Shown here: positions 17,035 through 50,423 of the stretch, one piece after another | Position numbering within the stretch: position 1 is the stretch's first letter | Layout of the letters: every line of letters starts with the position of its first letter | DNA from: Geosiphon pyriformis uo1 | Lineage: Eukaryota; Fungi; Glomeromycota | DNA: 64,000 bases | Direction: 5' to 3' | NCBI GenBank assembly: GCA_016748015.1 | Contig: JAAOMT010000468.1 | Span: forward strand, 558,001 to 622,000 | Made by a program: the position numbers and the translations under genes | Notes under the pieces: model-generated | What the model saw: only the letters and a program-made list of their open reading frames with translations | Database searches by the model: none | What the model was told of the DNA's origin: nothing

Positions 17035-20000
17035 GCAGTTTAGTCTGGAAAGTTGCTACATGCAACGTCAGGGGCATGAACACTCCTGCTAAGCAAGAAG
17101 ACATTATTAGGTGGCATAAGGAAATGAACAATTTGGTTTCTATCGTTACTGAAACAAAATTGAGAAGTAGGATTTGTCCGTGGATTGCAGACAAGTTTGA
17201 TGGTATCCGAGTGTTCACTTCTGGTTTGGACTCTAGTCACTTGGGTGCGGGTGTTGCTGTTATCATGGACGTTTCTTTGGCTCATCATGTGTGCAAGGTT
17301 TCTGAGGTGTCTGGTCAGCTCCTTTCCATTAAATTACTTTTCAAGAGTAAACTTTCTGTGTCAATTTTGGGGCTTTATGCTGGTGCTTTTTCGGTGGTTT
17401 GGTTTTTTCAGACTGGTGAAATCAATTCTCTCATTGCGAAGGCTGTCAATGAATCTTCTTTCATCATTCTCAGTGGTGATTTTAATGAAGACAGCTCTCA
17501 TAAAAATGCAAGTTTCAAAAGATGCTTTGATTTGGGTCTGGTCAATTCTTTGATTGGTAGCCTGGCTGCAAAGATGCTCACTTGGGAAAATTCTAGGGGT
17601 GTTAAGAAAACAATTGATTACGTGTTTGTCTTCTCGAGTCTTGTCAATGTGATAGTGCATCGTAAAGTTTTAAATGTCAGTGAGTATTTTGACATGGACC
17701 ATCAAGCTGTTTCAGTGAATTTGGGTTTGGGCGGGCTCTTGGATACACATTTGAATTCTCTTTGCAAACAAGCGAATAAAGACCGTTGGAAGTTTGACAT
17801 CAAAAGTGCCAGTAAAGCTAAGTGGTTGGAGTTCAAGGATGTTTCAGCTGCTAATGTTTCTTTGTTCTTGGATGCTTTTGGTGTGACAATAAGATTTTCA
17901 GATGTGGACACTATGTGGAACATTGTTTGCAAGATTATGGTTCTTTCAGCGGGTGGTACATTTAAGAAAAAATGGTTCAAGAGTTTTAATAGCGTGTTTA
18001 CCAAGACTTCTTCTAGGTTTCACAAGCTGGAGCTACTGGTTTCTAAGTTGGTCAAGGCATCGCGTTTGGCTTCTAGTGATGGTTTTGCTTCTTTTTTGGA
18101 GGTGTGGCACAGACTCGACTCCCTTGGTACATCAGTGGTTAAGTCTCTGTTTCTTTCAGGTTCTAATTTTGATCTTATTCATTCTGCGCTGGCCAAAGCA
18201 AGAAAATCATACCGCTCCTTCAAATTAGTGGAATCCAAGCGCGCTGAGAAATCTTTTATCAAGCAGGCTATTAATAGGAGAATGGAGAGTTTTGAGCTGA
18301 ACAAGAGTCACATCATTAGGAGTGTCTTGGAGCGTCTTTTTCACAAGGTGGTCCTGGATCATTTGGTTGTAGAAGATGAGTTGATTTTAGAGCCTGTTTT
18401 GGTTAAGTCTAAGGTGGACGAAATTATGGAGGGATGGACCAGAAAACATGAGGTGGTGTCTGACTTGTCTGAGGATTGGGCTCATCAATATCAGCCTCTG
18501 GATTACGTGTTTGATGGTGCTTTCTCTGATGTCATGTGTTTGATTAGTTTTAATGAGTTGTCAGCTGTTGTTAAGGATCTTCCTGATGGAAAAGCAGCTG
18601 GTCTTTCTGGTATCTCCAACGAATTATGGAAACATTGTGACAAATCTGTTTTGGATATGCTTTTGGTGCTCTTGAATTTCTGTTTGGTTGGTGAGTTGGT
18701 CCCTGGGCCTTGGAGAGAAGCTTGGGTTTCAATGATTCCTAAATCATATGAATGGGAGGGAGTTCTCACGAACACCCGTCCTATAGCTTTAATTGAAACG
18801 GCCTGCAAGATTCTCTCCAAGATCCTTCAGATAGGATCTCTCTGGCTTGCAGCACTTTTGATGTTCTTCATGGGAACAATTTTTCAGTTTTGAAGGGTAC
18901 AATGACGCAATCTCCTATTTTTGCTATCAGTTCTGTAGTTGAAGATGCCTTGGAGAAGAACCGTGAACTTTGGCTGGTTTTACAAGACATGCACAAGGCT
19001 TATGACTTGGTTGGTTGGGAACATCTTAGGAGGAGTCTAGTTAGAATCAAAATGTGTGACAGATTTATTAGATTTTTTGGCAGTATTCACAATGGTCGTG
19101 TCAACAGAGTGATGACTGACTTTGGCTTGACTGGATCAGAGAGAAGTCTTCTCACCTCTTTTCTGGCATATTTTCTATGATTCACTTTTGTGCGAGGTCA
19201 AGAGACAGGATAGTGTGTATGGCTACAGATTAAATTCTCATTTCATATCTAGAACTGGCCAGATGGATCCTCAAGCTGGGCTGTCTTCGTTTCTTGCTGC
19301 CGGTGCTTTTGTCAATGATATTATTTGGGTTGGTAACAGCCAGGCTGCTACACAATGCATCCTTGATATTGCTAGTGAGTTTTTTAGGTTTAATGATATT
19401 TCTGTAAACAATGACAAAACGGTGGCCATCTCCATCAATTGCCGGATGCTGGATCCTTATTTAACTATCAGTGGTACGCCTATTTTCATTGCCAAAAGAG
19501 GGGAATCTCATCGCTATTTGGGTATTTTTTTGTTTTCTGAGGGTCTTTCAAAGCCTAGCTTGGCTAAAGCTCAGACTGATGTACGGTTTTTTGTGAATCT
19601 TGTTTTGAGAAAGACGATTTCAAACAAACAGTGTGCATATTTGGTGTTTGCAGTTCTTTTCCCTATCATCAGCTACAGGACTCAGTTCAGTTTTATTTCT
19701 GTTGGTGTTTGTAGTAAATGGGATGCTTTGGTACGCAAGATCTTAAAGTCAAAGTCTGGATTGTCATGTGATTTCCCCAGTGATGCACTCCATCACCCCT
19801 CTTTGTACAATTTAAAAACTTTCGAACAGATCCAGATTGAGAGTAAATCGGTCTCCGTTGTTGCTTTTGCAAATTCTACTGGTGTCTTGGGTCACTTGTT
19901 TTCTCATAGGTCTCATGATCTCCAGGTTCTCAGCTGGCATCCTCGTCATCCCTTGCTGTTTCCGGCTTGTGTTAGTATCAGTCCCTCGGATAATTTTTTA

Positions 20001-21692
20001 GCGGGTGTGGTTCACATTTTTTTTGGGTGTGATTTGTCTTTGGGAGGCCCTCTAGCTTGTGCTTTTTGTCATCGGTACAGTACTTTTATGTCTTTGGTTC
20101 TTGGTGAATCCTGTTTTTTCAAGTGCATCTCTTTGCTCAGGCGTTATGGAATTGCTTTCGTGGAACAGCTTTGTGACCGTAATGGTGATGTTTTCAGTTG
20201 GGGGACCTTCAAGTGTTGGAAGAGACTGGACCCTTGTGGCCCAGTCCCTTTCTGGTTTAATCTTTCTGTTTGCTTTCTTAGTAGTGTTGTGCCTCTCTCC
20301 TCAAGTTCTTCTTTGGTGGATGGTCATGCGGTGTCTGATATTTGTCTTTCTCATGATTTTAGTGTAATTCGTGACACTTTGCCAACCATTGATGCTGCCC
20401 GCCTTTCTGTGTATACAGATGGATCTCTTTCTGGTCTGGACACTGTTAACATGAAAGCAGGTGCTGCCGTCTTTTTTGAGGACATTAACTTGGGTTTAGG
20501 TGTTGAGGTGGCTGGTTTGGTTTCTTCTACTCTGACAGAACTGCAAGCCATAGCTTTGGCCCTTGAGTGTGTTCCTTTTTTTCATTCAATTGACTTGTTC
20601 TCGGATAGCCAGGCTGCTTTGGATGCATGTAGGTCAAAGTCTTCGCTGGTTCGTCTGGATTTCAGGAACCACTGTTGGATCAAACGTCGTCACATTGCCA
20701 CCGTCATTCATCAAAAGAATTTGGATGTGAATTGGGTTAAGGTGAAAGGTCATTCAGGTGTTTTAGGCAACAAGCGTGCTGATGCACTTGCCAAAAGTGC
20801 TGCTCTCTCTGCTTGGCGCCTACCTCATTTAGTCAGTGAACGTTTTCTATGTGCTAGTGGTACAGCAGTTTCTGGTAATTCTAAACACTTTGTTCGTGAT
20901 GTTTTTCAGTCAGTTCATCGAGCTCGTTGGGAGATTGGAGTGGGTTCTCGTGTTGTAGATGATAGTTTGTGTGCTGATATCAATTGGTCTAAGTTTTCTA
21001 TGGTGTGGCACCCCAATTCTCACTTGGCATCTGGTTTTACTAACATGCGCACAGCAGGCTGTTATACTTACTTTATGAAGGCTCTCCATCATCGGCTTCC
21101 TGTTGCTGTGTGCAAGCGTTTATATAATAGGAGATACCCCAGTGTAGTCTGTCTGCTTTGTGGTGATGTTGAAACCTCGGATTATGTCTTTTTGTGTCCT
21201 CAGGATGCCATTGGCTATGCTTATTTGTTGGATGCACATGCTTTAGCTTGGGAGGCTCTTTCTGGTCTTTCTCGCTCTTCTTCATGTGTCTTACAGGCCT
21301 TGGCTTTTTGTGTTTTTGAGGTTGGAGTTGGTGTTGCTCTGTATAAAGGCTTTGTTTTCAATGAATGGTTTCATGAGTCTGTCTTGGTCTTTAAAGATTC
21401 TAAGAAGGGTGCTAAGAGGATTGTGAGCTTTGTGCGTGAGTTTTGTCTAGCATTTCAGGATGATGTTTGGTTGGTCCGGGCCAGACATTGAGCGTTTATG
21501 GAAAAGCACGGTTTGATTCCACGTGATGGCTCCGCTCCTGCTTTAGTTTCTGGTTTGCCTATGGTGTTTTCGGCTGGTGTGGTCAGGTTGCTGGGGGTGG
21601 CTGAGACTTTTGGAGTTGGTTTTGGGTTTTGTAAGTTTTGTCCATTTTTTTCAGGTATTGGAGATCTAGTTTATGTGCATAAAGATGTGTAG
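17031..21692 (+). pseudogene. LINE ORF2: APE endonuclease, RT, RNase H, C-terminal zinc finger
   Basis: TCNVRG, GDFN, IDYV, DHQAV (APE); RPIAL, GAFVND (RT); YTDGS, ELQAI, SDSQ, KGHSG..NKRADALAK (RNase H); CLLCGDVETSDYVFLC. Start ATG mutated to ATA; ~26-nt deletion near 19133. Confidence 0.93.
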
Positions 21693-22270
21693 TATAATCC
21701 TGACTGGCCCGAGTGGCTGGTCACGTATAGAAAATGCATGATTCGCACCTAGTTTAGATCATTTGTATGATGTATAGCACTAGGTCGTGTTTGGACCTCA
21801 CTCGTTAAAATAAAAAAAAATATAATAATAATAGTAAATATTATTATATTAACAGCAAATATTATTTAAAAATATCAAAAATAAAGTATTATAATATATT
21901 ATTTTATAAAATTATAAACATATATATTTTTATTAAAAAAAACACAGATTTAATATTTTTTAATAAGAATAATGTTTTTTTTAAGCAATATATATAACTA
22001 TATAAATAATTATTAATTATAATACATATATAAATATATAAATTATTTTAATATTTGAAAAAATAAAAAAATTATAAATAAATTATAAAAATAAAAAAAA
22101 ATTTATTATTATTATTTATTTTTTAAAAAAAATCAATCATAATAAATATTTTATAAAAAAAAATAATCAAATTTTATAAGAACACAAAAAATACAACTAA
22201 TATTACTCAAGTAAAAAAACCAATTCAAAACTATTAAAAAAATATTATTAATATATAATAATATAGAAAA

Positions 22271-22350
22271 AATATAATACAGAATAATATGAAATAACTT
22301 AGAATAATACAAGATAATACACAATAATATGAAATAGCACAGAATAATTA
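22271..22350. repeat. Degenerate 10-bp tandem array (AGAATAATAC-like, ~8 units), possibly in a decayed LTR
   Basis: aatataatac|agaataatat|gaaataactt|agaataatac|aagataatac|acaataatat|gaaatagcac|agaataatta. Confidence 0.55.
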
Positions 22351-23201
22351 CTCATAACAGAAGATAATTAGTTATAATATAAAAAAATAAAACAATAATA
22401 GAAACAGCAAGCAATAGCTAATAATAACAAATAATTAAAAACAATCTTATAAAATTAAAGAATATGTATAAAAACAAATAATTTTAACAGATAAAAAAGA
22501 AACAACAAGCAAAAAAAAACCAAAAACTTACTTCTTTTTTTATATTTTAATTTTAATCTAAATTAATTTTATCTTATATATATTCATAAATCAATTTAAT
22601 AAAATCTTATTATTTAATTTATACATATATAATTATTATATTTTGAGTATTAAAATCAAATTAATTGTCTTTTTTACTTTTGCTTTAGACCAAATACAAT
22701 TAACATAAACAGCTTTAGAACTCTAATAACTTGAATTAATTGCTTTTAATTATAATAATTAATAATACTAATTTTTTTTGTTTTTTTTTGTTTTTTTATT
22801 TTTTTTATCTGAATTCTCTTTTCTTTTTTGTGAAATAGCAACATTAAAAATCAATTGTCTGAGAATAGACTTCATAATAGCCTAATAAAAGAGAGAAGCT
22901 TTTTTTAGGTTTAGATATTAACTTTATTTTATTAACTTACTAGAAAGATAAAAAAATAATATTAGATCCTAATAACTATACTTATTATTTTAAAAAAAAT
23001 ACAACAAAAACAACACAATTAAAAAACCAAAACTTTGTGTTTTATAAAAAAAAACTTATTAGATATAACTTTAAACAAAAAAATTTTTAGAAATTAATAA
23101 CTAACTTAATCAAAAAAACTATTACATTAATATTTAATTAGATTTTATTATCAAATTATGAATATTAAAAGTTACAACTTTATTTTACCAAGTTTATTCA
23201 T

Positions 23202-24151
23202 TGTTACTAATAAATATTTGAGACATAATTTAGCATAAAATTATCTTTATAATTTTTATTATTAATTAATATATATTATTATTTCAATTTATTACTTATT
23301 ATTTTATTAAATTGTTTGAATTACTATTTAATTAATAATCTGATTTATACAATACACAAATTATAATAATCAAATTACAGAATACTCTAAACTATGTAAA
23401 AATTTACTGAAATAATTAATAGTTTACTAAAATACTAAATAATTTGTAAAAATAGCTTGTAATTTGCCAAAATGTATTTTTAGTTTAATGAAATAATAGT
23501 AAAGAGAAAAATACAAATTTATAGACTAGTATTATAACAAGCTGTATAAAAAAAAAGCTTTTCTCTTCAAAAAAATATATTTTATTAGAAAATAGCAATC
23601 TTATATTAGAATTATTTTTCTTAGAACAAGTTTTTTATATAAATCAATAAAGTATTAAATACTTTAAAACATAATTTATTTTAATTAGTTACAAATTAAA
23701 ATTTCTTAAAAATTCTAATTAATGTTTTAAAATTAATTAACTACCAATTTTAATAAAACAAAATACAATTTTCTTAATAAAATTTTTTTTTTTAATATTT
23801 TTTTAATATTTTTTTAATATTTTTCTTTTTTTCTTATTATATACATTAAAGTAGTTTATAGACAAAATTCCTGTAAAAAAGTTGACTTTTATAACAAAAT
23901 AACTACACAATTTTAGTAAATTTTTAGATAAACAATTCCAAAAAAAAGTTGACTTTCACCAAAAAGTAACTATACAAATAACTAACATAAAATTGGTTAT
24001 TTTATTTATAAGTCTAATAGTTTAAATTATAAGAGATAATTTAAAAATAAACTCAGTTATTAGAAGTTTATTGGCTTCTAATAATTAAAAATTAATAGCA
24101 AAATAACAACAACAACAATTAAAAAAAAAAGATTAAAAACTTCTGATAATA
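23202..24151 (+). mobile_element. Strongly decayed solo LTR, family C, inverted relative to the other two copies
   Basis: Collinear with the reverse complement of 11119-12072. Starts TGTTAC and ends GATAATA (from GGTAACA). Flanks TCAT/TTAT. Confidence 0.82.
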
Positions 24152-26924
24152 TTATAATACCAGCCAAAAATTAAAATTAATACAACAATATTATAATTAA
24201 AATTTTTTAAAAAAATATATAATATTAAAAATTCAGTTTATAAAAAGCAAAAATAAAAAAATTACAAAAAATTTCATAACTAAAATATTTAATTAATTAA
24301 AATACTATTGTTAAAACCATATTTTTAAAAATATAACAATTTTATTACTTAATTAATATTATAACAAAAACAAAATTAAGTGATAAAATTAATAATTTAT
24401 TTGTTAAAATAAGACATAATATAAAATATAAACAATATATATTTAAAAAACATAAATAATAAAAATCTAAAAAGTTAATAATAAATATAAGTATTTAAAG
24501 CTTAAAAAAACAAACAAACATATAAAAAAAATTAATTGTTTATTATAAAGTTATAAAAAGTTAACTTAATATAAAATTAATAATTTTTTAAATTAACAAA
24601 AAGTCTGTATATAGCTAAATTATATTAAATTTATATATTATATTAAGATTATTTAAATATATTAACTATTTATATATCTTAAATTAATTAATTTAATTGT
24701 AAACTTATTTGATATATTATTTTTTTATGAGTTATTAATTTAAATAATCAAATTTAAATAACTAAATTTAAAACTTAATTATATATTATTAATATTAATT
24801 GTAATTATAATTAGCATAATTAAAAATAAATAAATAAATTATATTTTTTAATAACTATTTCTAAATTATAATCATAGATTTAAAATATTAAACTATATAA
24901 ATAAAGATATATAATCTTAAAAAATAATAAAATCTATTATTATTAAATTATATATGTTAATTTTTAATTTTTATTAGTGTTTTTTAATTTGTTAATATTT
25001 TTTTATATCTATTTTAATTAATAATTAAATTATATTATATCTTTTTATTATTAAACTAATTGTTAATCTTTTATTTTCTATTTGTTAACTTATTTTATTA
25101 ATTAAATATAATAATATAAACTTTTTTTACATAATTTTAATAGTAATTTTTATAGTATATATTGTAATTTTTATATTAAAAACTGTAGAAATTTACTAAT
25201 AACAATATATATAATAATTCTAATATTAAAAAAAACAGCTATAATTTTAGTTATTTTTATAAACAATAATAAAATATTCAATAAATTTTTAATTAATTAA
25301 AAGAAATAAAAATATATTATTATAAATTAAATTATTGTTATAAAACTATTACAGAATTTATTTGTATTTATTTTTAAATAAAACTATTATTTATTAACTA
25401 AATTTATTAGAAAAATAATTCTTAATTAAAATTATTTATATTATTATTAATTAATAAAAATTTATTTAGAAAATATTTATTTTATGTTTTTAAATTAATA
25501 AATTTTAAATTAACTTTTAAGAAAGAATATATTATATATAATAAAAATAAAATACAAAAAAAATTTGCATAATAGTTTTAATAGAAAATTTTTATTATAA
25601 CAATTATAATATTATAATTTTTTTATTTTTATTTTTATAACTACAATTAAAACAAAAAGTAAAAAAATTACACATTTTTGATTTTTTTATTACTTAAAAC
25701 AATTGATAATTTTTTATTGATAAAAATTCAACAGTTATAAAATTGCTTAACAGTACTCTATAGAAATACTTTTTTAAATAAAGTAATAGTTGGCTTTTTG
25801 CTGTTTTAAAAGCATTTTTTTATTTTTAATTAAGAGTTTTTTTTCAAGGTTTTTTTAAAACAATTTATTTAAAATAATTTTAATATAATCTTAATTTTTT
25901 TTAAAATTCCTAAAATATTTAATAAAAAATTAATAATTAAGTTATTTTTTTTATTTTTTTTTATTGTTGTTTAAATAATCAAAAAAACCAAAACAATTAA
26001 GAAATAATTTTTTTAAATTTTTGTTATATCTGATAGTAATTTTTTTAAAATATTAAAAGATTTTTTTTTAGTATTTTTGATAATTTTAAGATCTTAAAAT
26101 TGGTTTTTTTTGTTTTTTTTTGGCTTTTTATTAATTTTGTATTATTAATACTAATTATAATATTCACTTTTATTATAATTATAAATAAAACAAAACATGT
26201 TTTTACATATGTTTTTATTTAATTAAAATTTTAAATTATTTAATCTTAAAGATTAGATTAATTAAACAAAATTAATTTTTATTTTTTTATTTTTTGGTAC
26301 TGTTTCTAATAGTACTTAAAAAAATATTATAAATTATTAAAAATTTGTAAAATAAATAATTTTTATTTTAATGTTTATGCTACTTTTAAAAATAAATTAA
26401 TTTTTATTAAGATTGTATTTTAATATATATTTTTATTAATATTAAATTTGTGTTTAAAGATAATATAAAGTTTTTTTATATAAAATTTGTTTTTTAAACT
26501 TTTTTAAATACTGTATTTTAAATTAGACTTACTTGTTTTATTTTTTAATTTTTAATTCTGCTTAGTAAATATAATATATTATTATTATTTTTAATTTAAA
26601 GATTAATTTAAAAGTTGTTATTATTAAAAGTAATATATTAAAAAATATTATATTTAAGAATTTTTTTTAAATATTAGTACTGTTTTAAGTATTAAAATAC
26701 AAATTATTTAACTATAAATTAAAATTTATTTTTATTTTTTTCCTAGTTTTTATCTAAATTTGTAATTATTTTTAAGATTTTTGAATTTTATTATATTAAT
26801 ATTAAATTTTTGGCTGTTTTTGCTAATATTAATTTTTTAATTGGTTTTTATTTGGCTTTTTTTAAAGTTTAAATTGATTTGTTTTAAACTTAATAGTTAA
26901 ATTTATTATTAAACCAATTAATAT

Positions 26925-27650
26925 TGTTACGGTTAAAACACATAGTTTTTATTAATTATCACATGTATTAGCCACTGATGTCATATAATTAGCCATCCTA
27001 TTTTTAGATAGTGATTGTTGACCTGATCAATGACCTGACCGTTGACCTGATCATTGACCTGATTATTGACCTGATCAATAACCTGATCATTGACCTAATT
27101 GTTGACCTGATCATTGACCTGGTCGTTGATCACTTTAGATAGCTATATAAGTGATGATTCCCTTAGCTGTAGAAAGACATGATCAAAGTAACGAAATAAA
27201 CAATATCAATTACTTCCTCTCATAATTGCTTATTCTCCTTTCCTTACCTTCAAGTATCTACTTGTTGGCATTCACATACCTTATCTTTTCCCCTTCTTGA
27301 TTTGTATTTGTTAGAATTAGCCTGAGAAGCAATTGGCTTGCTCTTGTAATTCATTGAATAAAGAAACGATTGAAAAACACAACAATACCTGTTATTGATT
27401 CTAAGAATCGCTGAGTTGAGGCATAGAATAATAGCAGCAGTGTTATCTTGTTGACAATCACGGACTATTTCTCTACCTTCAGATTTAAGAAAAGATTAGC
27501 GACTGTGATTTTTATGAGACTGATCACGCACATTAAATTCCTACTTATTCAATTCACTCCCTTATTGTAATTCCTTCTTTGTTTATTTCCATTACCATAT
27601 AATACTGTTCTCCCTTGCTATCCATTAGCTTGTTACTCCAACCCATAACA
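26925..27650 (+). repeat. Gypsy-A 5' LTR (726 bp) with 12-bp tandem array TGACCTGATCAT
   Basis: TGTTAC...ATAACA; array at ~27018-27130; TATATAA at ~27144. Confidence 0.95.
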
Positions 27651-27656
27651 TAAAAG

Positions 27657-27674
27657 TAGTGCTCCCTGTGAGGT
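27657..27674 (+). promoter_or_regulatory. Primer-binding site of Gypsy-A (mutated TGG>TAG)
   Basis: TAGTGCTCCCTGTGAGGT 6 nt after the 5' LTR; differs from the Gypsy-B PBS only by transitions. Confidence 0.7.
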
Positions 27675-27759
27675 TGTCAAAATTCACTTACTCTCTCATT
27701 GTATAGGTGATTACTCATATCTGCCACAGCAATCAGAAAAACACTTTGCAGCACACAAC

Positions 27760-29214
27760 AGAAATGACCAAAGTTTCATTGAACTTAATCCTCTGCCCTC
27801 CTGCTTGATCTGCTTCCCCCTTGAAAAACAATCCAGTAGACAATTCTAAGACTGTTGGAACTGGTTCCTGAACGAGCATTCAGCTGAAACCTACACAGCT
27901 TATACAACCTATTACTTTGACCAAGCTTATTTTGAAAATGACTTTGAAGAAAGAAACAACAGTATCAATCAGCTCTTATATTCTGCAACTTTTGAACAAC
28001 AGCCCCCTGATTTCGAATATCTGAATCATCAAATCCACATTTGGATTGCTGTCCATCAAGCAACTAAAACTCCCTTTGAAACAGAAAAAGAAAGCTATCA
28101 AACTGCCCCTGTTTTTGATCTTTTATCAAGTGAATCAGACTCGTCTACACAAACAGTTACCCCTGAACCAATGGCTAATGACCCCATGCAAGCAAACATT
28201 CTGGCTGCCCTCCAAGGTATACAAACTGCTCTAGGGTGAAGAAACAACACCCCAATTCCATTATTTAGAGGTGATGCACAAGATCTAATTGAATAGTTAG
28301 ATGACTTTGAAAGAGCCGCTACAGCCAATCAATATAATGATGAGTACAAGTTCCTAATTGTCGGTGGCTATCTTCAAAAATCCCCTGCTACCTGGTTCTC
28401 ACAAGAAACAGATGCCAATGCCCAGCAAAGAATCATTAGATGGACACCAGCAAATGTGAGAAAAATCAACACTTCTTTCACTACCCGGTTTGAAAACAAG
28501 TTCAGAACCCCAATATTAATATCAAAATGGCATATGAAATTGGAAAAAAGAACCCAAGGTCCTGGTGAAGTTGTAACTGAATATGCCAAAGCAATCAGAA
28601 AGTTAATCAAATGAGTAGATACTGGAAGAAATTGGACAGAAAAGCAGAAAATTCACTCTTTTACAAAAGAATTGAGAATTGATCTATTGTATGCTCTTTG
28701 GCCCCTCCTGGCCCTGAAAGATAATCCCACCATAGATATGGCCATTGAATTAGCACAAAAAATTGAAAATAACCAAAGGATGCACTTGGGATCCACACTA
28801 CCAGTTTTTGCTCCTGTTCCTGTTATGGCTTCTGCCTTTCAAATGGCTGCTACTTCTTTTGCCACTCACACTCAAGATCCAAATGAACAGTTAATAAACA
28901 GACTCACAGCAAATCTTGCCTGGTTATTAGAACCCTTAGCCCAAGCAGTCAGAGAAAATCAGCAACCACAAAGACCCAGATTTGAACCACGCTTCAATCA
29001 GCCCCAGCAACCACCTTATCAAAGACAACAAAATCGTGGCCCACCTGTATGCTATCACTGTGGATTAACTGGACACTTTTCAAGAGATTGCAACAATCCT
29101 CCTCTGCCTCCACCAGTTCCCAAAAACAATGATGCTCAGAACAACAGGATCAACAACAACAATGTGCCCAACCAAAGACCCAATCATGCCAACATCAATT
29201 TCTTTGGAGAGGAT
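27760..29214 (+). pseudogene. Gypsy-A gag (capsid plus CCHC nucleocapsid) with in-frame stops
   Basis: QGPGEVVTEYAK capsid-type motif, Q/P-rich linker, CYHCGLTGHFSRDC knuckle. Start approximate. Confidence 0.85.
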
Positions 29215-29465
29215 NNNNNNNNNNNNNNNNNNNNNNNNNNNNNNNNNNNNNNNNNNNNNNNNNNNNNNNNNNNNNNNNNNNNNNNNNNNNNNNNNNNNNN
29301 NNNNNNNNNNNNNNNNNNNNNNNNNNNNNNNNNNNNNNNNNNNNNNNNNNNNNNNNNNNNNNNNNNNNNNNNNNNNNNNNNNNNNNNNNNNNNNNNNNNN
29401 NNNNNNNNNNNNNNNNNNNNNNNNNNNNNNNNNNNNNNNNNNNNNNNNNNNNNNNNNNNNNNNNN
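29215..29465. other. Assembly gap (251 N) covering the gag-protease junction
   Basis: Run of N. Confidence 1.
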
Positions 29466-32400
29466 TGGATCATCTGTTAGTGTTATTGCCAAACACTTTC
29501 TTAAAGCAATTGGCAGAAAAATTGATGAACCATCCACATGACCAATGACCAATGTGCATGGTGATAAGAAGAAAGGGCTTGGCATAGCCAAAGCTATTCC
29601 TGTCTGCATCAATGACATTAGCATTGAAACTGATATGGAAGTGTCTGAAGCAAAAGAATACACCATTATTGTTGGCAATGAATGGCTCAAGAAAGCAAAG
29701 GCTTTGCTTGATTATGAACTCTGTGAACTAACCATCAGATGTGATAAAAAACCCATTGTGGTTAAGTGTCACCATTGGACAACTCCCCCAGTACCCAAGC
29801 AGAGCCCAGAAGAAAATGAATCAGATGAATCAGATAATGAAGAAAGTGAGGAAGAAAAAAAACAAGAAAAACAAGAAAAAACTGCTGAACTCGCTTATAC
29901 CATCTTCACTAGCAATGGCAAACCACTGAATAATGTCAAGGCAGATAAAAAAGGAATTATTGTCAATGGCAAGCTGATCTGCTGGTCTTATTATGGCATG
30001 CTCAGAAGAACCTTTGACAGAAAGCCAGGCAAAAAAGCCAAATACAGTTATTGGTAGCATGGTCCTTGTGCTCGGTGCTGGTGCGACAAACCATTGTATT
30101 CTCCTAGCAATGAATGCATGTTCTGCCTGATCTATTACAAAGATTGGGAACCAATCAGCTTGATACCCCAAGAGGAAATAAAAGAAGTCCAAAAGTCCTT
30201 TGAAAACGAACCACCTGAAATCCAATCACTGGTTGTAGAACAAAGAGAACCCTCTTCAGAAGAAAGAAAAGTAGACATTGAAAACCTGCTGGCTAGAAAC
30301 AGCCCAGTTATCTTAAAAGAAGGTGAACCTCCTGGATGTACACATGTGATACAACACACTATCATCACCAGAGAAACTCGCCCCATCCATTTGAAGTCCT
30401 ATCAATCCAACCGGCACAATGATGAGTTTATCAAAAAGGAAATAACCCGAATAAAAACTCTGGGATTCATACAGGAAACCAAAAGTAAATGGGCATTCCC
30501 AGTTGTAGTGGTATCCAAGAAAGGAGGAACCCTACGCTTTTGTGTTGACTATCACCAATTAAATGCTATTACTGAAAGAGACATGTATTCACTTCCCAAG
30601 ATTGATGCAATGCTAGACCAATTCCATGGTACCGCTTTCTTCTCAACTATTGACTTAACTGCTGGATTCTGGCAAGTAGAGATGGATCCAGAAAGCAGAA
30701 AGAAAACTGCCTTCATTACCAAGTATGGTACTTATGAATTCACAGTCATGTTTTTTGGTCTCACAAATGCTCCTCCCACCTTTCAATGCTTAATGGACAA
30801 AGTATTTGAATCAGTAAAAAAAAACTTTGTTCTAGTCTATTTGGACGACATAATGGTATACTCAAAAACCTGGGATGAACACCTTGAACATTTGCAAAAG
30901 GTTTTTGACCTCCTTAGAAATGCTGGTCTCAAGATCAATCCAATCAAATCATTCTTTGGACGTCAATCCACCCAGTTCCTTGGCCATCTTATTACAAAAG
31001 ATGGAATCTTTCCTGATCCAGCCAAAATTGAAAAAATTCAAAACATTAGACAACCAATAAATGTTCATGAACTACACTCTTTTCTTGGTTTGGCCTCTTA
31101 TTATCGCAAATTTGTCAAGGATTTCTCCAAAATCGCTGCTCCTCTCAATCAGCTACTTAGGAAAAACATCAACAAAAAGCATTTGAAATTCTGAAAGAAA
31201 AACTGGTTACAGAACTCATCCTCATGCAACCTAATTTGGATTGACCTTTTATCCTCCACACTGATGCATCTGGCTATGGACTTGGTACTGTTTTTTCCCA
31301 AAAAGATAAAGATAACAGAGAACACGCCATAGCATATGCCAGTAGAACTCTCACACCAGCAGAAAGAAACTACTCAGTTACTGAGCAGGAATGCTTAGCA
31401 GTAGTTTGGGCTACCAGCTACTGGGACAAATATCTTAAGGGTGTGAAATTTTTGGTGATAACAGATCACCAAGCTTTGGTTTGACTATGCAACAAAAAAA
31501 ACCTGGAACATAAACGGATAACTCGCTGAATACTCCACTTGGACGAATTCGACTATGACATTCAACACTGTAAAGGAGCTAATCATCAAAACGCCGATGC
31601 TCTCTCCAGACTTACCATCCAATGATAGTAAAACCCTCTCAAACCAAACCAACTTAATTATTTGTAACTTCCCCCACAAACAAACATGATAATGGACTTG
31701 GATAACTACTCTGCTTTAATGAAATTTTTGGGTAAAAGACAATACCCACCAAACTATACTCAACAGCAAAGAGAATATTTGCGCAAACAATCAAATTTCT
31801 ATTTGATTCGCCAGAACCAGTTATATAAAAAAAATAGAAAAGATCCTGACCACCCCCAGAGAGTCATTAGATTTAAAGAAAGAGAAATTGTGATCTACAA
31901 TATGCACACTGATCCATTAGCTGGACACTTTGGAAAAACAAAAACAATTCAGAAAACTTTAGCTCGCTATTATTGGCCTACCTTGGGAAAAGACATTGCT
32001 AAATACATCAAAACCTGTGATACTTGCCAAAAAAGAGGAAAACCCAATCACAAGGAAGATATCCATCCAATCTCTGTTGGTCAACCATTTGATAGAATTG
32101 GTATAGATGTTGTTGGATCTTTAACAGTAACTCCTGATGGCAACAGATACATTATCACAGCTACCGACTATCTTACAAAGTGGGTAGAAGCAAGAGCCAC
32201 CCCAGATCAAACAGCAGTCTCAATTGCCAATTTCATTTATGAAAATATTATCTGTTGCCACGGCTGCTCCAAAGAACTTTTATCTGATAGAGGAAAAGCT
32301 TTTCTCAGTACACTGGTTGAAGAACTTTGCAGAAAAATGAGAATACGTCATAAACTCTCTTTTCCTTATTACCCCCAAACAAATGGCCTAGTGGAACGTT

Positions 32401-32999
32401 TTAATAGAACACTATGTAAAACCCTAGCCAAAACTAGTGAAGAAACCAACCTATGGGACAAAGTATTGCCTTCAGCTTTGTTTGCTTACAGAACTGTGAA
32501 TCATGACATAACAAATTATGAACCCTTTTATCTGCTCTATGGACAAATAGCAACTCTACCAATAGAAACAAATATAGAAACAATACCTTTTGAAGAAATA
32601 ACAATAGGAGATTACAAAGACATTTTGCAAAGAAGACTTGGTACCATTCTTGATTCATTAGTAGAAGCACAGATAATTGTCTTTGAAAAGATAAAACAGT
32701 TCCAAGAAAAGCTCAAAAAAAAAAAGACCTATAAAACACTTTTCTTAAGTGTTGGTGACTTAGTTTTGGAATACTGTTCAGACAGAGACAATGTCTATGG
32801 TGATAAATTCTCTAGCTGGTAGAAAGGACCCTTTTTAGTCAACAAAGTTTTGAACAATGGTTCTTATATCTTACAAGATCAATATGGAACAATATTCAGT
32901 GATTGCTCTGTTCATGGCACACGACTCAAGAAATATCACAAACGACCTGATTGGTTACCTGTTGTGGTAATACCGACCCAAATGATCAGCAAAAATTAG
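29466..32999 (+). pseudogene. Gypsy-A pol: protease, RT, RNase H, integrase with GPF motif, no chromodomain
   Basis: GSSVSVI / IVGNEWL (PR); LRFCVDY, IDLTAGFWQ, VYLDD (RT); HTDASG, AYASR, ITDHQAL (RH); H..GH..CDTC, IGIDV, LSDRG, NGLVERFN, KGPF (IN). Confidence 0.94.
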
Positions 33000-33046
33000 A
33001 TATAAATAAATGCATCATTCCCAAAACAGAGGTATCTTCAATCGAC

Positions 33047-33616
33047 ATGAACAATTATTTCTTGGATCAAAACATTCAAAACGCTTTTTATACTCTCCAT
33101 GAGTACTGGATCAAGAACTATCCAAATGCTACTCTGACTATTGAAAAACAAACCACTATAACAGACAACAGTGAAACTTACACTGTTATTAGACCAAAGA
33201 AAACAACTACCAGAAGAGAAAGAATTGGTGGCAAAATGGATAAATACCTGCTGGAAAGCATAACAGCAGCAATACTTTTACCTTCCAGCACAATTGGAAA
33301 AACAATACAAGAAATCTTGTCCATAGACAAAAACTTGTCATATGGAAGACAATTAGAACTCTATGGTCGTCTTGGTGAAATCATAGAAGACATGAAGCTC
33401 ATGAAGAAAACAACTTTAGAGATACAAGTGGAAATTTTGGGCATTATACGATTGGATGTCCCAAGAGTTTTGACCATTGCTAAAAGAGCCAAAACTCTTA
33501 TACAAAGATTTGGTCTCTTGGATACAAAGCTTATTTCGCCTCAAGTACTATATACTCTATCCACAAAAGACTTCAACAAACTAGTTAGTTTTGAGTTAGA
33601 CAAACCCTTCACATAG
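33047..33616 (+). CDS. Gypsy-A ORF3, unknown 189-aa protein at the env position (no evident TM or signal peptide)
   Basis: Uninterrupted frame from ATG 33047 to TAG 33616 between the integrase stop and the PPT; resembles Gypsy-B ORF3. Confidence 0.7.
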   Translation: MNNYFLDQNIQNAFYTLHEYWIKNYPNATLTIEKQTTITDNSETYTVIRPKKTTTRRERIGGKMDKYLLESITAAILLPSSTIGKTIQEILSIDKNLSYGRQLELYGRLGEIIEDMKLMKKTTLEIQVEILGIIRLDVPRVLTIAKRAKTLIQRFGLLDTKLISPQVLYTLSTKDFNKLVSFELDKPFT

Positions 33617-33671
33617 ACTATTCCATAAATAGTTTGATTTCGCCGGAGCTCAATCTCTTTGGAGAGGATGA

Positions 33672-34409
33672 TGTTATGGTTGAAACACATAGTTTTTATT
33701 AATTATCATATGTATTAGCCACTGATGTCATATAATTAGCCACCCTATTTTTAGATAGTGATTGTTAATCTGATCAATGACCTGACCGTTGACCTGATTA
33801 TTAACCTGATCATTGACCTGATCAATGATCTGATCATTAACCTGATCATTGACCTGATCATTGACCTGATCATTGATCTGGTCATTGACCACTTTAGATA
33901 GCTATATAAGCGATGATTCCCTTAGCTGTAGAAAGACATGATCAAAGTAACAAAATAAACAATATTAATTACTTCCTTTCATAATTGCTTATTCCCCTTT
34001 TCTTATCTTCAAGTATCTACTTGTTGGCATTCACATACCTTATCTTTTTCCCTTCTTAATTTGTATTTGTTAAAATTAGCCTGAGAAGCAATTGGCTTGC
34101 TCTTGTAATTCATTGAATAAAGAAACGATTGAAAAGCACAATAATACCTGTTATTGATTCTAAGAATCGCCGAGTTGAGGCATAGAATAATAGCAGCGGT
34201 GTTATTTTGTTGACAATCACGGACTATCCCTCTATCTTCAGATTTAAGAAAAGATTAGCGACTGTGATTTTTATGAGACTGATTATGTACATTGAATTCC
34301 TACTTATTTAATTCACTCTCTTATTGTAATTTCTTCTTTGTTTATTTCCATCACCATACAATACTGTTCTCCCTTGCTATCCGTTAGCTTATTACTCCAA
34401 CTCGTAACA
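33672..34409 (+). repeat. Gypsy-A 3' LTR (738 bp), preceded by PPT GGAGAGGATGA (33661-33671)
   Basis: Direct repeat of 26925-27650, longer by exactly one 12-bp unit. Confidence 0.95.
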
Positions 34410-39780: not shown

Positions 39781-40614
39781 TGTTACAGGTAATTATTTCT
39801 ACTGTTGATTAAATAACAAATCCATAACTTGGTGCTCAAAAGCTACTTCCATGGATGAGGTTCTGCAAGTGTTGTATCTGAAGGTTTTGATGAAGTCTTT
39901 TGTATAATGAACAGAGATTCAATAGTGTCAATAGTAGATGTATCTTTCCAAGAGTTTTCCCAATTTCTTTTTCAGCATGGTGGCCAAATTTAGTCTGGCA
40001 GTTGTGCCCTTCTGGTAAGCTATCCAATAATATATAAAATCCTACTCTTATTTATAGGTCTTTTACCAGGCTATCCTTGACATCAATAACTCAGTGCTTA
40101 ATCTTTTAATCAATTAGTATACAACAACAAAATCAAAAAAAAGAAAGAAAAGAAAATAAAGAAAATAAAAAATAAAGAAAATAGAGAAAATAAGCCAAGG
40201 CAATTTGATATGTTAGTATCTCATCAATAGCCATGATCAAGAGCTATTGTTCTAATGTAGTTAAGTATCAATTACTATCAACATGAAGTGTTGATAGTGG
40301 AGAGTGGATTGAGATATAAAATAATTATTTATTTGATGATTTTGTTTTTAGGCTAAAAATTCTGTGGTATTGATTCTGTCTTTTCTGTTTCTACCACTAC
40401 TGCTATATATACATATTTGAGATTTCCCAATTCCTCGATTTTTCATGATGGGAATCCTGGAATTCCTGGAATCCTGTGATTCCTTTGAGAGGAATTCTGG
40501 AATTCTGGAATTCTGCAATTCCTGAGAAGAATCCTGGAATTCCACATTTACTATACCTACTTCTGATTGGCTAATAATCATACTAATATATTTCCTATAT
40601 TTCTATGAGTAACA
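39781..40614 (-). repeat. Gypsy-B 3' LTR (834 bp) with 9-bp GGAATYCTG array; PPT at 40615-40630
   Basis: TGTTAC...GTAACA; minus-strand AAAAAGAGGGAATAA abuts the LTR. Confidence 0.95.
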
Positions 40615-40627
40615 TTATTCCCTCTTT

Positions 40628-41257
40628 TTAATATTGAGCTCCGTTAAAATCCAACTCATTTAATTCTCCCTCTTGAAGTATTTCCTGGATTTTGTTTTTG
40701 AGAATTACTTGTGTTATTTGGGTCTGTAATTCTTCAAATTGAGCATTAGTGATCTTTCCCAATTGATTACTGGTAACCATATCCATTGCTTTGTTGAGTA
40801 ATATTTCTGGTCTATCCTGAAATGCTGTGTGTATTCGGTATATGGCTCGGGCCTGTGTGGATAAGTTGTTCTTTCTCACAAAATGTTCTAATTGTTGTAG
40901 TATTCTTTTGTTGAATAATCACTTTGTTTTATCCATATATAGATTCTGGATATTTATGTGTTGTCCCAAATAAAAATAACAATAGTTTCGTGGAAATTGT
41001 TGTATCTACCAATTCCAAGTTTCTTTAGTCAACTCTTAATATAGTGACTTTTTTGTCAACTCTTTTATTGTTAATTTTACTTTCGCAATGATTTTGTCTA
41101 CCATATTTTCAGTTTTTTTCTGTGTTCTGGGTTGCAATGTCTTTCTAGTATTTTGATATTGAATGGTTTGTTGATTGATTGTAATCTCCATTTCCTGGTG
41201 TTGGATCAATTAAAAGAGTTGTTGTGCTAGTGAGTGAATGTTGTCTGTAATTTCCAT
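40628..41257 (-). pseudogene. Gypsy-B ORF3 (~209 codons, four in-frame stops), similar to Gypsy-A ORF3
   Basis: Reads MEITDNIHSLAQQLF*LIQ...MEITINQQTIQYQN...MVDK...YFYLGQHI...ARAIYRIHTAF...LGKITNAQFEEL in one frame. The stops (TAA, TAA, TAG, TGA) are explicable as C>T of CAA/CAG/CGA. Confidence 0.68.
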
Positions 41258-41309
41258 TTTTCTGATATTTCCTGTTATGTTAACTATGTTCTTATATATT
41301 CTTTTGTCA

Positions 41310-44184
41310 ATCAATTGGATGTGTTGTTGTCAATGATAATGATTGGTTCCAGATTTCGTGAAATCTCATTTGGTTGGACTAGTATTCTCTATACTCCTAA
41401 TTGTGGAATATTACTGGTGAATGATAATGCTATATGGTGGTACGGTTTCAGTTGATCTCTATGTGCTGCTTTGGTCAAGATTTTGTCATTCAATTTTAAT
41501 TTATAAGCTTCATTTTCTAGAATTTCTTCTATGTGAAATGGTCCATTTCATTTAGGGTCAAATTTTCCATTCCATTGTTTTTCCGCTTTGGTACAATGTA
41601 GTAGTACTTTGTCTCCAATCCTGAATTCAACTGGTTTATCTGGTAGTTGGTTATTATGTCTTTCTTTTTGTTTCTCTTGTAACTTTTGTATGTTATCAGC
41701 TGCTCTTTGTCATTTGTTTTCTAATGTTTCCATTAAGTCATATGTTCTTCTCAACAATGTATTTTTGAAATTCTCTTCTGTTATTGGTTCAGTTGGGTAT
41801 GTGCTGACTTCTATTTCCACTGATAGTGTTGCTGTTCTACCATATACTAATTCAAATGGTGTTGCTTGTGTAGTATCTTGTTTTATTGTCTAATAAGCAA
41901 ATAATACTGATGGTATCAACAAATCCCAATTGTTCTGGTTTTCTTGGCTGAGTTTAGCTATTGCTTTACACAATGTTCTGTTGAATTTTTCGACTAATCC
42001 ATTGGTTTGTGGATAATATGGTGATGATAGTGGTCTCTTAATTCCGAATCTTTGGCTCAATTCTGTTAATGTTTTGTTCACAAAATGAGTTCCTTGGTCT
42101 GATAATAATTCTTTTGGACATTCATGTCGACAGATCAAATCCTGATGAATAAATTCAGCAACAGATTCTGCATCCGCTTTTTGAATTGCTTTCGCCTCTG
42201 GCCATTTAGTGAGATAGTCCATGGCTACTGCTATATACCTGTTTCCTCCACTGGTGATTGTTAATGGTCCGACTAAATCAATTCCAACATGGTTGAATGG
42301 TTGTCCTACTTTGATTGGCCTTAATGGTTCACTGGGTTTTGTACCTCCTCTTTGCTGACAAGCATCACAATTTTGAACATATTGGATGATGTCTGGATAT
42401 ATTGATGGCCAATAGTATCTTTTTCTGGTTCTTTCTATGGTTGCTTCTTTGTGAAAATGTCCTGCTGTTGGATTTGAGTGCATGTTGAATAATATTGTCT
42501 TTTTTTCTGGTTCTGTAACTATTCTGGTTGGTTGCTCTGAATTTATTTTTATTTTTCCAATAAAGTATATTTTGGTGAGTGATAAAATATTTTAATTGTT
42601 GTTTGATATTCTTTTGTTCCGTTTGAGATAAATTCTCCTTGAACTGTTGAGTGTTTATATAATGTTAAAGTTGTTGATATTTTTGTATATTCATCTTTTG
42701 TTATATTTTTCGTTGGTATTGTTCTGGTTTTATTATATTTTTGTGTTAAAATGTTCTTAGATTTGTCTTATTTGCGACAAACTATCAGCATTTCCATTGT
42801 CTTTTCCTTTTTTGTAATATATAGTATAATTGTATGGTGCAAGTGCCATTTTCTATCTTGACTGTCTTCCATCCCCAAATTCTTGTTTTTGGAGTGATGT
42901 TAGTCCCTTGTAGTCTGTGTATACTTCAAACTTCTGGCTCAAGTATTCTTTTCATTTCATGACTGTCCAGTATATTGCTAAGTGTTCTTGTTCCAGTGTT
43001 CCATAGTTCTTTTTGGCTGGTATTAAACCTCTGCTGGCATATGCTACTGAATGTTCTCTGCTGTCTGGTCTTCTCTGAGATAATACTGCTCCCAATGCTT
43101 GGCCAGATGCATCAGTGGTGATGATGAATGGTTTGCTGTAATCTGGATAAATCAGTACTGGAGCTTGAATGAGCTTTCTTTTCAAAATATCAAAAGCTTC
43201 TTGTTGACTTTCTGCTCATTCATATTTGGTATTCTTGGTTTGCAGATTATTAAGCAGTTAAGCTATCTTTGAAAAGTTCTTTATAAAGCGTCAATAATAG
43301 CTCACGAATCCCAAGAATGATTTCAATTCAGTCACATTGGTTGGTACTAGAAAGTTTTTTACTATCTCTATTTTCTTTGGATCCATTTTGATGCCGTCTT
43401 TGCTTACTATGTGTCCCAAGAATTTTAGCTCTGTCTTGCTAAAGAAGCACTTTGTTGCATTTAACTTTAGCCCTGTTCTTCTTAGTCTTTTAAACACTTG
43501 TTGAAGATGATGAAGATGATCATTAAATGTTTTTGAGAATACGTTGGTGTCATCCAAGTATACAACTACTGATTTCTACAATAAGCCAGTATAGACAATT
43601 TCCATTAGCCGTTGGAAAGTGGCTGGTGCGTTGGTTAAACCAAATGGCATTACTTCAAATTCGAAATTCCCTTCTCTCATGGTAAATGCCATCTTCTCTT
43701 TGTTGGCTGGATCCATGGCCACTTGTCAGTAACCACTATCTAAGTCTAATATTGAGAACCATTTGTTTCTGCCAAAAGCATCAAATAATTCCTGTATCCA
43801 TAAAGTTGGATAACTGTCTCCACAAGTTACACCATTAAGTTTTCTGTAATCCACACAAAATTGGATCTTTTTATTCTTCTTACAGATGAGTACTACTGGT
43901 GATAACTATGGGCTCATTAATGGCTGAATTAGCCTATTGTCAAGCATTTGGTTTATCTCTTGTCAAATAATCTCATGGCTGGCTGGTGGTACTCTGTATG
44001 CTCTTCGTTTAATTGGCATTGCATCTTCAGTCTTGATCTGATGCTGGATGATGTCAGTTCGGCCAAACTCATTTTCACTGGCAAAAATGTCATTGAACTG
44101 GTTGAGCAACATCTTAAGTTGTATATGTTGGAGTGGATCTAAGTTTTCCATGTTCATTTGTTCCAATTGTTTTGGTTGGAGCAA
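41310..44184 (-). pseudogene. Gypsy-B RT, RNase H, integrase
   Basis: FCVDYRKLN, MPFGLTNAPATFQ, VYLDD; TTDASG, AYASR; H..GH..CDAC, VGIDL, LSDQG, NGLVEKFN, NGPF. Confidence 0.93.
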
Positions 44185-44589
44185 ATAACATTCACTTCAT
44201 CTGTATATTGTTTGTGATATGATATCGACATATCCACAAAGTTGTGAAAAGTCTGGAATGGGGTTTGGTGGTTGATCCTTTATTTTAGTATTTAAGTATC
44301 CAATAATGGTTCTGGCTGGTATTTCTATGACATTTTTTGTATTGTTGTAGATGAGAATTTTGATGTGGCTGTAATCTTTGGCTGGTATGTGAAGATTGAT
44401 AAATCCAACTTCTCCTGATTCACAAAGACTGGCTTCTGCTTCAAAAATTTGTGCTTGGTCTTTTTCCTTCCTTTCTATTGCTAGCATGTACTGGTTATAT
44501 GGTGAAATGGAAATAGCTTGACCAGTTGAGATAATTTCTCTTTGGCCAACAATTTTTTCCTCCACCATATTAACTGGTACATCTATTCT

Positions 44590-44982
44590 GCCCGTTGATC
44601 CGAATCCCTGTATTCCTCTCGCTGTTATTCCTAATTCCTTCCTCTTTCCCACTGATACTAACTGAGCTACTCTAACCAGAGGCAGGAATATTGCCTGTGC
44701 TATCTTTTTGTTGGGCTCTATTATATAGGCCTTTTCTGAGTCATTTTGTAGCATAGCAATGATATTTCCTACATATCTTATGTCAATTATTCCTCCTCTT
44801 ATATTAATCCCTCTTTTCGCTAAACTACTCCTAAATGCTAATTGAACTATTGTTGTTGCCAAGATTTCTAGGGCTACTTTCAGATCAATGTGGGTGCATG
44901 AATGTGGTTCCAATTTGATAGATTCTTTTCCTGGATACCTTAGATCAAATCTTGCATCAGTATCATGTGCACATTCTGGCAT
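44590..44982 (-). pseudogene. Trimeric-type dUTPase domain in the Gypsy-B polyprotein between protease and RT
   Basis: All five motifs in order: DARFDL, RSSLAKRGI, GGIIDIRYVGNI, KIAQAIF, RGIQGFGSTG. Confidence 0.92.
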
Positions 44983-46216: not shown

Positions 46217-46220
46217 TCGT

Positions 46221-49946: not shown

Positions 49947-49988
49947 TTTTGGATGGTGTTTGTTGGTGCTGGTTCTCTGTAGGATTAG

Positions 49989-50006: not shown

Positions 50007-50008
50007 AA

Positions 50009-50361: not shown

Positions 50362-50423
<62 letters not shown>

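Follow-up and report, generated by a model that had tools for sequence, protein, structure and literature searches.

C-to-T decay of retrotransposon copies in Geosiphon pyriformis: RIP-like in outcome, broad in sequence context

Several fungi turn cytosines of their repeated DNA into thymines. The repeat-induced point mutation (RIP) of Neurospora crassa and other Pezizomycotina makes C:G>T:A transitions only, creates nonsense codons and leaves old AT-rich elements beside normal genes (PMC7296669, PMC12543289). The Dim2 process of Zymoseptoria, which is gradual, consists of more than 95 % C>T and is concentrated in repeats (PMC8016269), and the non-ascomycete Pucciniomycotina undergo a repeat-directed C>T hypermutation influenced by a 5' T (PMC3318451). 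In Tuber melanosporum, a symbiont rich in transposable elements (TEs), transposons are changed mainly at CpG and secondarily at CpA, as reported in a study that also tabulates CpG, CpA and CpT signatures for ten Dikarya genomes (PMC4352252); further reviews cover the subject (PMC7862722, PMC13297926). A 2025 survey of 1,239 genomes reports RIP-like signatures as unique to ascomycetes (PMC12543289), and arbuscular mycorrhizal (AM) fungi have been described as without RIP signatures (PMC8647823, which refers to work on Gigaspora). Here we examine the retrotransposon Gypsy-A and other repeats in a 64,000-nucleotide stretch of the Geosiphon pyriformis genome (contig JAAOMT010000468.1, forward strand, positions 558,001 to 622,000), called the window below. 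A first-pass annotation of this DNA had proposed a repeat-targeted, broad-context C>T mutator in a probably non-Dikarya fungus, and the host, a member of the Glomeromycotina, agrees with the latter point. In silenced Geosiphon copies, cytosines are lost from both strands about 100 times as often as any single type of transversion occurs.

Comparison of the window with itself reveals a repeat pair (26925-27650 / 33672-34409), the long terminal repeats (LTRs) of Gypsy-A. This element is a Ty3/Gypsy LTR retrotransposon, recognised by its LTRs, target-site duplication, primer-binding site (PBS), polypurine tract and the order gag, reverse transcriptase (RT), RNase H, integrase. Its parts are:

26921..26924 (left) and 34410-34413 (right), + strand: target-site duplication ATAT flanking Gypsy-A
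26925..27650, + strand: 5' LTR, TG...CA, aligned with the 3' LTR
27651..27666, + strand: probable PBS-like stretch after the 5' LTR, resembling TGGTGC with a G>A change
28615..29541, + strand: gag with a CCHC zinc knuckle (Pfam PF00098), terminating at an in-frame TGA
29542..31625, + strand: pol, with RT, RNase H and, by position, a probable protease (Pfam RVT_1; tblastn)
31692..33002 (end approximate), + strand: integrase, a separate open reading frame (ORF) with its own ATG (Pfam rve, Integrase_H2C2)
33661..33671, + strand: polypurine tract preceding the 3' LTR
33672..34409, + strand: 3' LTR, TG...CA, with one 12-bp unit more of an internal tandem repeat

Both LTRs belong to one insertion and were thus identical when it occurred. 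They now differ by 46 transitions (31 C/T and 15 G/A) and no transversion, so that the claim of exclusively C/T and G/A substitutions holds over the full 726 aligned columns, in which the example contexts given in the first-pass annotation (TTACGG/TTATGG, CACAT/CATAT, TGA/TAA, CCTCTC/CCTTTC, TAGAA/TAAAA) are all located. If transversions ordinarily make up 20-33 % of substitutions, the probability of finding none is 3e-5 to 5e-9 (computed for 47 changes; 46 observed). The contexts are mixed: CpA 17/100, CpC 14/52, CpG 11/30 and CpT 4/84. The coding regions carry the same imprint. Gypsy-A pol has premature stops and a single frameshift near 31165, and the integrase a premature W>TAG at 32820. 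Considering columns conserved in relatives, nine of ten premature stops in the two Gypsy elements of the window are W>TAG/TGA or R>TGA/TAG, that is, tryptophan or arginine codons altered by G>A or C>T as had been supposed for most of them; the tenth, listed as F>TGA, is probably W>TGA too, because Gypsy-A has TGG at the F>W column. The observed/expected (o/e) ratio of CpG is 0.15-0.43 in the elements; the host-gene blocks, at 0.83-0.86, do keep their CpG.

Some features of Gypsy-A stand apart from its mutations. TGGTGC itself is present in the second element, Gypsy-B, at the position equivalent to the PBS-like stretch. The gag region contains an assembly gap of 251 N (29215-29465), and no protease was detected with Pfam in Gypsy-A. 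The RNase H frame closes with TGA TAG TAA (31623-31694, +), and the integrase ATG at 31692 lines up with residue 1 in a relative that is free-standing. The tandem repeat by which the sister LTRs differ in one unit is of 12 bp, TTGACCTGATCA-like (window 27016-27140).

Sequence context was counted in three DNA pairs, the LTRs of Gypsy-A and Gypsy-B and two 3' ends of long interspersed nuclear elements (LINEs), C or G being assumed ancestral and the LTR-B ends being a few bases off. The additional elements are:

39781..50903, - strand: Gypsy-B, dUTPase-bearing, inserted in a LINE; LTRs at 39781-40614 and 50009-50903
15242..21822, + strand: LINE with an RRM-bearing ORF1 (15242-16576), whose family is the source of the genome-wide test, and an ORF2 with RNase H
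1912..2898, + strand: 3' part of a second LINE copy, 87 transitions and 10 transversions from 20837-21822

Between the LTRs of Gypsy-B, 834 columns contain 55 transitions and 3 transversions, two of the latter in a poly-A tract, and even the 4-bp target duplication of this element, ACGG/ATAG, has been altered by C>T and G>A. Over the three pairs, changes affect CpG 53/113, CpC 41/213, CpA 52/356 and CpT 36/311, which bears out the broad context claimed earlier, 129 of the 182 changes being non-CpG. Expressed as the share of sites differing per pair, this amounts to about 47 % for CpG, 22 % for non-CpG TpC and 11 % for other non-CpG sites. Codon logic, which needs no ancestral assumption, also yields non-CpG C>T: P>S (always CpC) 40/484, M>I (CpA) 23/236 and R>K (CpT) 23 cases. 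A 5' T approximately doubles the non-CpG rate, both in DNA (64/291 vs 65/589, p=3e-5) and in proteins, as seen from first-position G>A (188/1,766 vs 196/3,750, p=8e-13). No such rule appears at CpG, where ACG is the hottest trinucleotide (21/33) and TCG reaches 13/32 (p=0.08), and this apparent difference hints at two activities. The TpC preference had been overlooked in the first-pass annotation, as had AT-rich blocks as end products of the process.

The spectrum is reproduced throughout the Gypsy-A family. When 55,640 contigs of one DNA run were placed on Gypsy-A, weighted by contig depth (a rough measure) and scored as variant wherever at least 5 % of the depth differed, 1,839 variant places were obtained: C>T 686, G>A 548, T>C 232, A>G 166 and all transversions together 207, only 8 of the 1,839 being C>G or G>C. 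Variant places hit 45-47 % of all C and G, compared to 0.1-2.4 % per transversion type. The 1,234 C>T/G>A places face only 64 CpG in the same stretch. These figures, together with the non-CpG majority in the DNA pairs and the P>S changes, exclude methylated CpG alone as the explanation of the transitions, and CpG-only decay is rejected. Two spliced runs gave merely 7 and 11 contigs on Gypsy-A, and this was not used as evidence of silencing.

A second transposon class was followed in proteins. From 120 LINE ORF1 proteins listed, 28 non-overlapping pairs sharing 70 % identity or more were formed (56 sequences, 9,136 columns; columns near gaps or poorly aligned were dropped). They contain 1,280 amino-acid pairs explicable by a transition only, 55 by a transversion only, 111 by either and 134 by several steps, whereas the genetic code offers 104 transition-only and 254 transversion-only pairs; an alternative pairing gave 1,517 vs 80. 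The direction of the proposed mutator is confirmed by 991 changes polarised on close relatives: 786 are of the C>T/G>A type, 60 go in the opposite direction, 38 are transversions, 69+2 are ambiguous and 36 multi-step. With opportunities estimated from the codons of the window copy as a stand-in, the rates are 0.071 for C>T, 0.0047 for T>C and 0.00065 for each transversion (15x and 108x), from which an equilibrium of about 7 % GC is predicted; 12 % is observed in AT-rich blocks. The same method applied to 36 pairs of environmental Gypsy relatives, five animal-named matches being excluded, returned 1,171 transition-only and 1,125 transversion-only pairs. These are diverged lineages under selection and not a neutral control, but their ratio near 1:1 indicates that the pairing method does not create the bias.

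Conserved columns were used for the LTR family since an integrase search brought no named Geosiphon paralogue among the 120 matches listed. A metagenome scan with the RT found 11 loci at 22-55 % identity, with no LTR pair in the three longest, and was of no use as a control. Three metagenome loci with related RTs (L001, L002, L009) have a CpG o/e of 0.21-0.24, a value that may indicate comparable decay elsewhere among soil organisms. The LINE ORF1 matched 313 proteins, and all 119 non-self matches listed are Geosiphon 'hypothetical proteins'; many annotated genes are therefore likely to be mutated transposon copies.

The window alternates between segments of 35-43 % GC and blocks of 10-14 % GC, parts of which are demonstrably old transposon copies:

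10436..11117, + strand: heavily decayed relative of the Gypsy-A LTR, within an AT-rich block
12148..13745, + strand: decayed LINE ORF2 (tblastn E 1e-71; 15.5 % GC, CpG o/e 0.1, TpC o/e 0.68)
21900..26900, no strand: AT-rich block, 11.5 % GC, no CpG

Against the Gypsy-A LTR, the copy at 10436-11117 shows C>T at 66/119, G>A at 41/88, T>C at 10/232 and A>G at 7/187; the alignment is gappy, with 72 apparent transversions, and about half of C and G have turned to T and A. Within the block at 21900-26900, a repeat copy (23202-24149), compared to two less decayed copies, has likewise changed from C to T at 49/83 sites and from G to A at 50/103; its alignment is AT-rich and includes 41 apparent transversions. 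In the AT blocks (12 % GC), o/e values are 0.65 for TpC, 2.04 for GpC and 0.10 for CpG, the footprint expected from the spectrum.

Two single-copy regions of the window served as controls:

54100..64000, no strand: host-gene block with spliced genes, CpG o/e 0.86, six single-nucleotide polymorphisms (SNPs) versus a second sample
3400..9300, no strand: host-gene block with a helicase gene, CpG o/e 0.83

The second gene in the latter block is presumably of ADE16/17 type. The 23 introns analysed (1,394 bases, not all boundaries being exact) have 26 % GC and o/e values of 1.07 for TpC, 0.99 for GpC and 0.74 for CpG; TpC depletion is thus absent from the introns of the window (TC vs AC, p=9e-12). 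Promoters and untranslated regions have 34 % GC, fourfold sites about 32 % (140/437), and GC and CpG shift within about 200 bp at gene edges. Over 9,951 single-copy bases, in the exons that it covers, the second sample differs by six SNPs, namely 4 transitions (2 at CpG) and 2 transversions, and by 1 deletion. Composition thus gives good support to repeat restriction, and direct polymorphism weak support: the targeting of repeats claimed in the first-pass annotation stands in so far as introns and promoters lack the footprint, and the six SNPs add little to it.

Whether these changes represent RIP can be judged from context, strand, load and linkage. The RIP hallmark of near-exclusive C:G>T:A changes in repeats is present. 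A RIP-type preference for CpA (or CpT) was not seen in the three DNA pairs, where CpA is average, nor were single-strand clusters: neighbouring changes lie on the same strand 90 times against 93.7 expected, although a weak process repeated many times might conceal such clusters. No heterogeneity in the balance of C>T to G>A is seen among 61 LINE copies (p=0.19). Losses of C/G per copy are 8.6 % and 9.1 % in the linked LTRs and 7.3 % (17/232) and 14.3 % (32/223) in conserved internal codons, the internal figures being upper bounds and the comparison being one of small counts and low power. The process is thus RIP-like in outcome, yet lacks two defining features of RIP and is not classed as such. 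What the first-pass annotation termed RIP-like hypermutation survives as a transition-only process in repeats; a reading as strict RIP is not supported, given the context, the strand pattern in DNA, the narrow load and LTRs that do not appear to be hit harder.

What needs to be explained is a C>T change of established direction, size and context, found on both strands and in two transposon classes, whose end state is a block of 10-14 % GC. The explanation we favour, with confidence about evenly balanced, is a gradual, likely vegetative C-to-T mutator acting on silenced repeats and linked to a putative methyltransferase. A cytosine methyltransferase would act on repeat chromatin in ordinary nuclear divisions. 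One activity would be CpG methylation of the DNMT1/DNMT5 type followed by deamination, and another, of the DIM-2/RID type, would be TpC-biased, act in all contexts and convert C or 5-methylcytosine (5mC) to T with the help of the enzyme. Methyltransferase-catalysed deamination of cytosine could provide the chemistry of this step, and as no abasic site would arise in such a conversion, C>G would stay near zero. Targeting would follow methylated heterochromatin rather than the pairing of duplicates, and changes would accumulate gradually rather than in premeiotic bursts. Indirect signs of gradual accumulation on both strands are the even strand balance of the LINE copies, the lack of same-strand clustering in the DNA pairs and a load that is no more than mildly overdispersed. 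A precedent is Zymoseptoria tritici, in whose repeats Dim2 increases the mitotic C>T rate by a factor of more than ten (PMC8016269). DNMT1, DNMT5, DIM-2 and RID have reportedly all been retained by AM fungi (PMC8298701), CG methylation marks the majority of TE loci in R. irregularis (PMC8647823), and Phycomyces TEs carry CG and CHH methylation together with DNMT1 and DIM2 (PMC11258239).

Several observations weigh against a vegetative methyltransferase-linked mutator. In proteins, same-strand neighbours are in excess (603 vs 561 expected, p=0.0015; runs z=-2.2), as many weak RIP rounds would give; an excess so small could come from brief processive tracts, from such repeated weak rounds or from common ancestry. 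The mutation load of the 61 LINE copies (mean 9 %, slight overdispersion, chi2 81, df 60, p=0.037) comes from copies keeping long annotated ORFs, a sample that narrows the spread. The single-copy control consists of six SNPs, with two of its four transitions at CpG, and its spectrum differs from that of the LTRs at p=0.008 to 0.09, depending on counting. CpG is spared in Zymoseptoria, where more than 98 % of the changes are at CpA, in contrast to Geosiphon. Finally, DIM-2-methylated heterochromatin of Neurospora shows no C>T excess in mitosis, with a transition/transversion ratio (Ts/Tv) of 0.93 (PMC10234303), so that DIM-2 methylation is not always mutagenic. The same Neurospora result makes purely passive decay less plausible and favours a contribution of an enzyme. 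Such decay, i.e., dense methylation of all contexts (CG > CHH, with a TpC-biased methylase), spontaneous deamination of 5mC and poor T:G repair without any enzymatic hastening, is rather unlikely in our view. It would explain the same targets, the involvement of both strands, the near-Poisson loads and the near absence of C>G, and is compatible with the methylation of Phycomyces and R. irregularis TEs. However, non-CpG C>T exceeds transversions by about two orders of magnitude (P>S 40/484), and methylated plant LTRs have a Ts/Tv of a few only. A true RIP-like defence, dependent on pairing, driven by RID and operating in many weak rounds during a cryptic sexual or parasexual cycle, appears improbable: CpA is not preferred (52/356 vs CpC 41/213), Neurospora clusters are 91.9 % single-strand (PMC7296669) and those of the Geosiphon DNA pairs are not, the linked LTRs do not exceed the internal regions, at low power, and the LTR family has attained a very high copy number. 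Transition-only, repeat-limited changes, sharp-edged AT-rich blocks, the mild same-strand excess in proteins and the RID reported in AM fungi (PMC8298701) speak in its favour.

A C-to-T mutator acting on the whole genome, for instance through weak uracil or T:G repair, with genic GC kept by selection, transcription-coupled repair or gene conversion, would account for the overall AT-richness of the window, the intron CpG o/e of 0.74, the 4 of 6 single-copy SNPs that are transitions (2 at CpG) and the same bias in Rhizophagus copies. We see little chance for it, as introns, promoters and fourfold sites retain 26 %, 34 % and about 32 % GC where 7 % is predicted and 12 % observed in old repeats, introns lack TpC depletion, 2 of 6 SNPs are transversions and composition switches abruptly at gene edges. 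The twofold TpC preference outside CpG and the seemingly different 5' rule at CpG (p=0.08) could also reflect an AID/APOBEC-like, TpC-preferring DNA deaminase acting on repeats, in addition to CpG decay. APOBEC3-type editing is known for TpC preference, strand-coordinated clusters and C>G by-products; here the preference is only twofold, C>G/G>C is limited to 8/1,839 places and both strands are changed in both LTRs, which excludes editing of a retro-intermediate. A deaminase is very improbable. Geosiphon lives at the soil surface, and an excess at TC dipyrimidines would suit ultraviolet (UV) damage, but non-dipyrimidine RCA sites are mutated (18/151), ACG is the hottest trinucleotide and the three pairs contain just 3 CC>TT tandems. 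Library or assembly damage is contradicted by a DNA run with 0 differences over 9,951 single-copy bases and by fixed differences in family contigs at single-copy depth; damage of either kind is scarcely conceivable as the cause. UV, library damage, retro-intermediate editing, CpG-only decay and TpCpG-only targeting are all rejected.

The bias is probably not peculiar to Geosiphon. A search among representative proteins gave mostly chimeric multi-RT proteins; with one representative as query, 11 R. clarus and R. irregularis Gypsy proteins were then collected. In their four nearest disjoint pairs, 43 differences are transition-only and 4 transversion-only; over the complete set of 18 R. clarus alignments the numbers are 210 vs 78, distant pairs carrying lineage divergence. 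Polarised changes in Rhizophagus are mostly C>T and rich in CpG-type arginine changes, with P>S, H>Y and S>N also present (overlapping pairs, small numbers). The bias may be widespread in Mucoromycota. It is possible, though we advance this only tentatively, that AM fungi and their Mucoromycota relatives possess an unrecognised, enzyme-driven and sex-independent defence, in which an ancestral TpC-biased methyltransferase of the DIM-2/RID family would turn repeat C into T in vegetative nuclei and build AT-rich isochores; this would be the older, mitotic form behind ascomycete RIP, overlooked as surveys sought CpA signatures. A repeat-directed C>T excess of about 100-fold in Glomeromycotina would provide largely clonal symbionts with an irreversible genome defence and would be relevant to how RIP originated and to a mitotic RIP, which has long been sought. 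Culturable Rhizophagus offers methylomes and strain panels.

A more immediate consequence concerns dating. The LTR pairs contain 1-3 transversions in 1,560 columns (upper 95 % bound 0.004-0.006) against 6.5 % total divergence, so that, if an ordinary Ts/Tv of 2 is assumed, a generic rate overdates at least about 4-6 fold, as the first-pass annotation had anticipated for LTR ages. LTR ages and Kimura landscapes are thus inflated for these fungi. About 41 % of the Geosiphon genome is LTR sequence, and obvious recent expansions have been reported only in Glomeraceae and Diversisporaceae (PMC11952901); the 'no recent burst' in Geosiphonaceae may partly be an effect of C>T inflation.

Some further features of the window and of related elements deserve mention. 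Two sites of difference in LTR-B (39781-40614) are its poly-A tract and a GGAATCCT-type repeat. The dUTPase of Gypsy-B (44200-45006, -; PF00692, E 3e-18) has counterparts in the environmental relatives P0344 and P0360, and three other environmental Gypsy relatives (P0325, P0339, P0358) have a NUDIX domain (PF00293) adjoining protease and RT. The LINE split by Gypsy-B (34733-52553, -) comprises ORF2 at 34940-39426 and ORF1 at 51063-51941, a nested insertion with its target duplication intact. Among the host genes, a micro-exon is suggested in an amino-acid transporter gene (63312-63497, -) by a 4-base AATG at the joint in spliced contigs of two runs, and an apparent GC-start intron, read from the sequence only, lies at about 8405-8476 (+) in the gene at 6690-9300.

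How does this process relate to the known repeat mutators? No report of repeat C>T hypermutation in Geosiphon was found in the literature searched, which left out the species' genome description and the Gigaspora 'no RIP' paper, so that a prior mention is possible. Geosiphon is absent from the main text and from 12 of the 19 supplementary files of the 2025 survey, including its genome table, in which Rhizophagus, Gigaspora and Diversispora do appear (PMC12543289). With RIP, the Geosiphon process shares the outcome; it differs by the missing CpA preference, interleaved strands in the DNA pairs, a narrow load, LTRs that appear not to be favoured, a huge LTR family and a host outside Ascomycota. 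The Zymoseptoria process resembles it in spectrum, repeat concentration and, probably, gradual action, but occurs in a different phylum, and its context, CpA with CpG spared, was not seen in the three DNA pairs, where CpG is hottest, all contexts are hit and a 5' T is preferred. Hypermutation in Pucciniomycotina is confined to TCG, whereas TCG is not even the hottest CpG in Geosiphon and most changes are non-CpG. Tuber shows the same combination of a strongest CpG component with a non-CpG part; in Geosiphon, CpC and CpT contribute to this part no less than CpA, and it depends on the 5' neighbour. CpG decay of the DNMT1/DNMT5 type likewise depletes CpG in repeats only, yet fails to explain the non-CpG majority and an end state of about 10 % GC. 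Among known repeat C>T mutators, the lineage, the context rule and, probably, a different timing are thus new.

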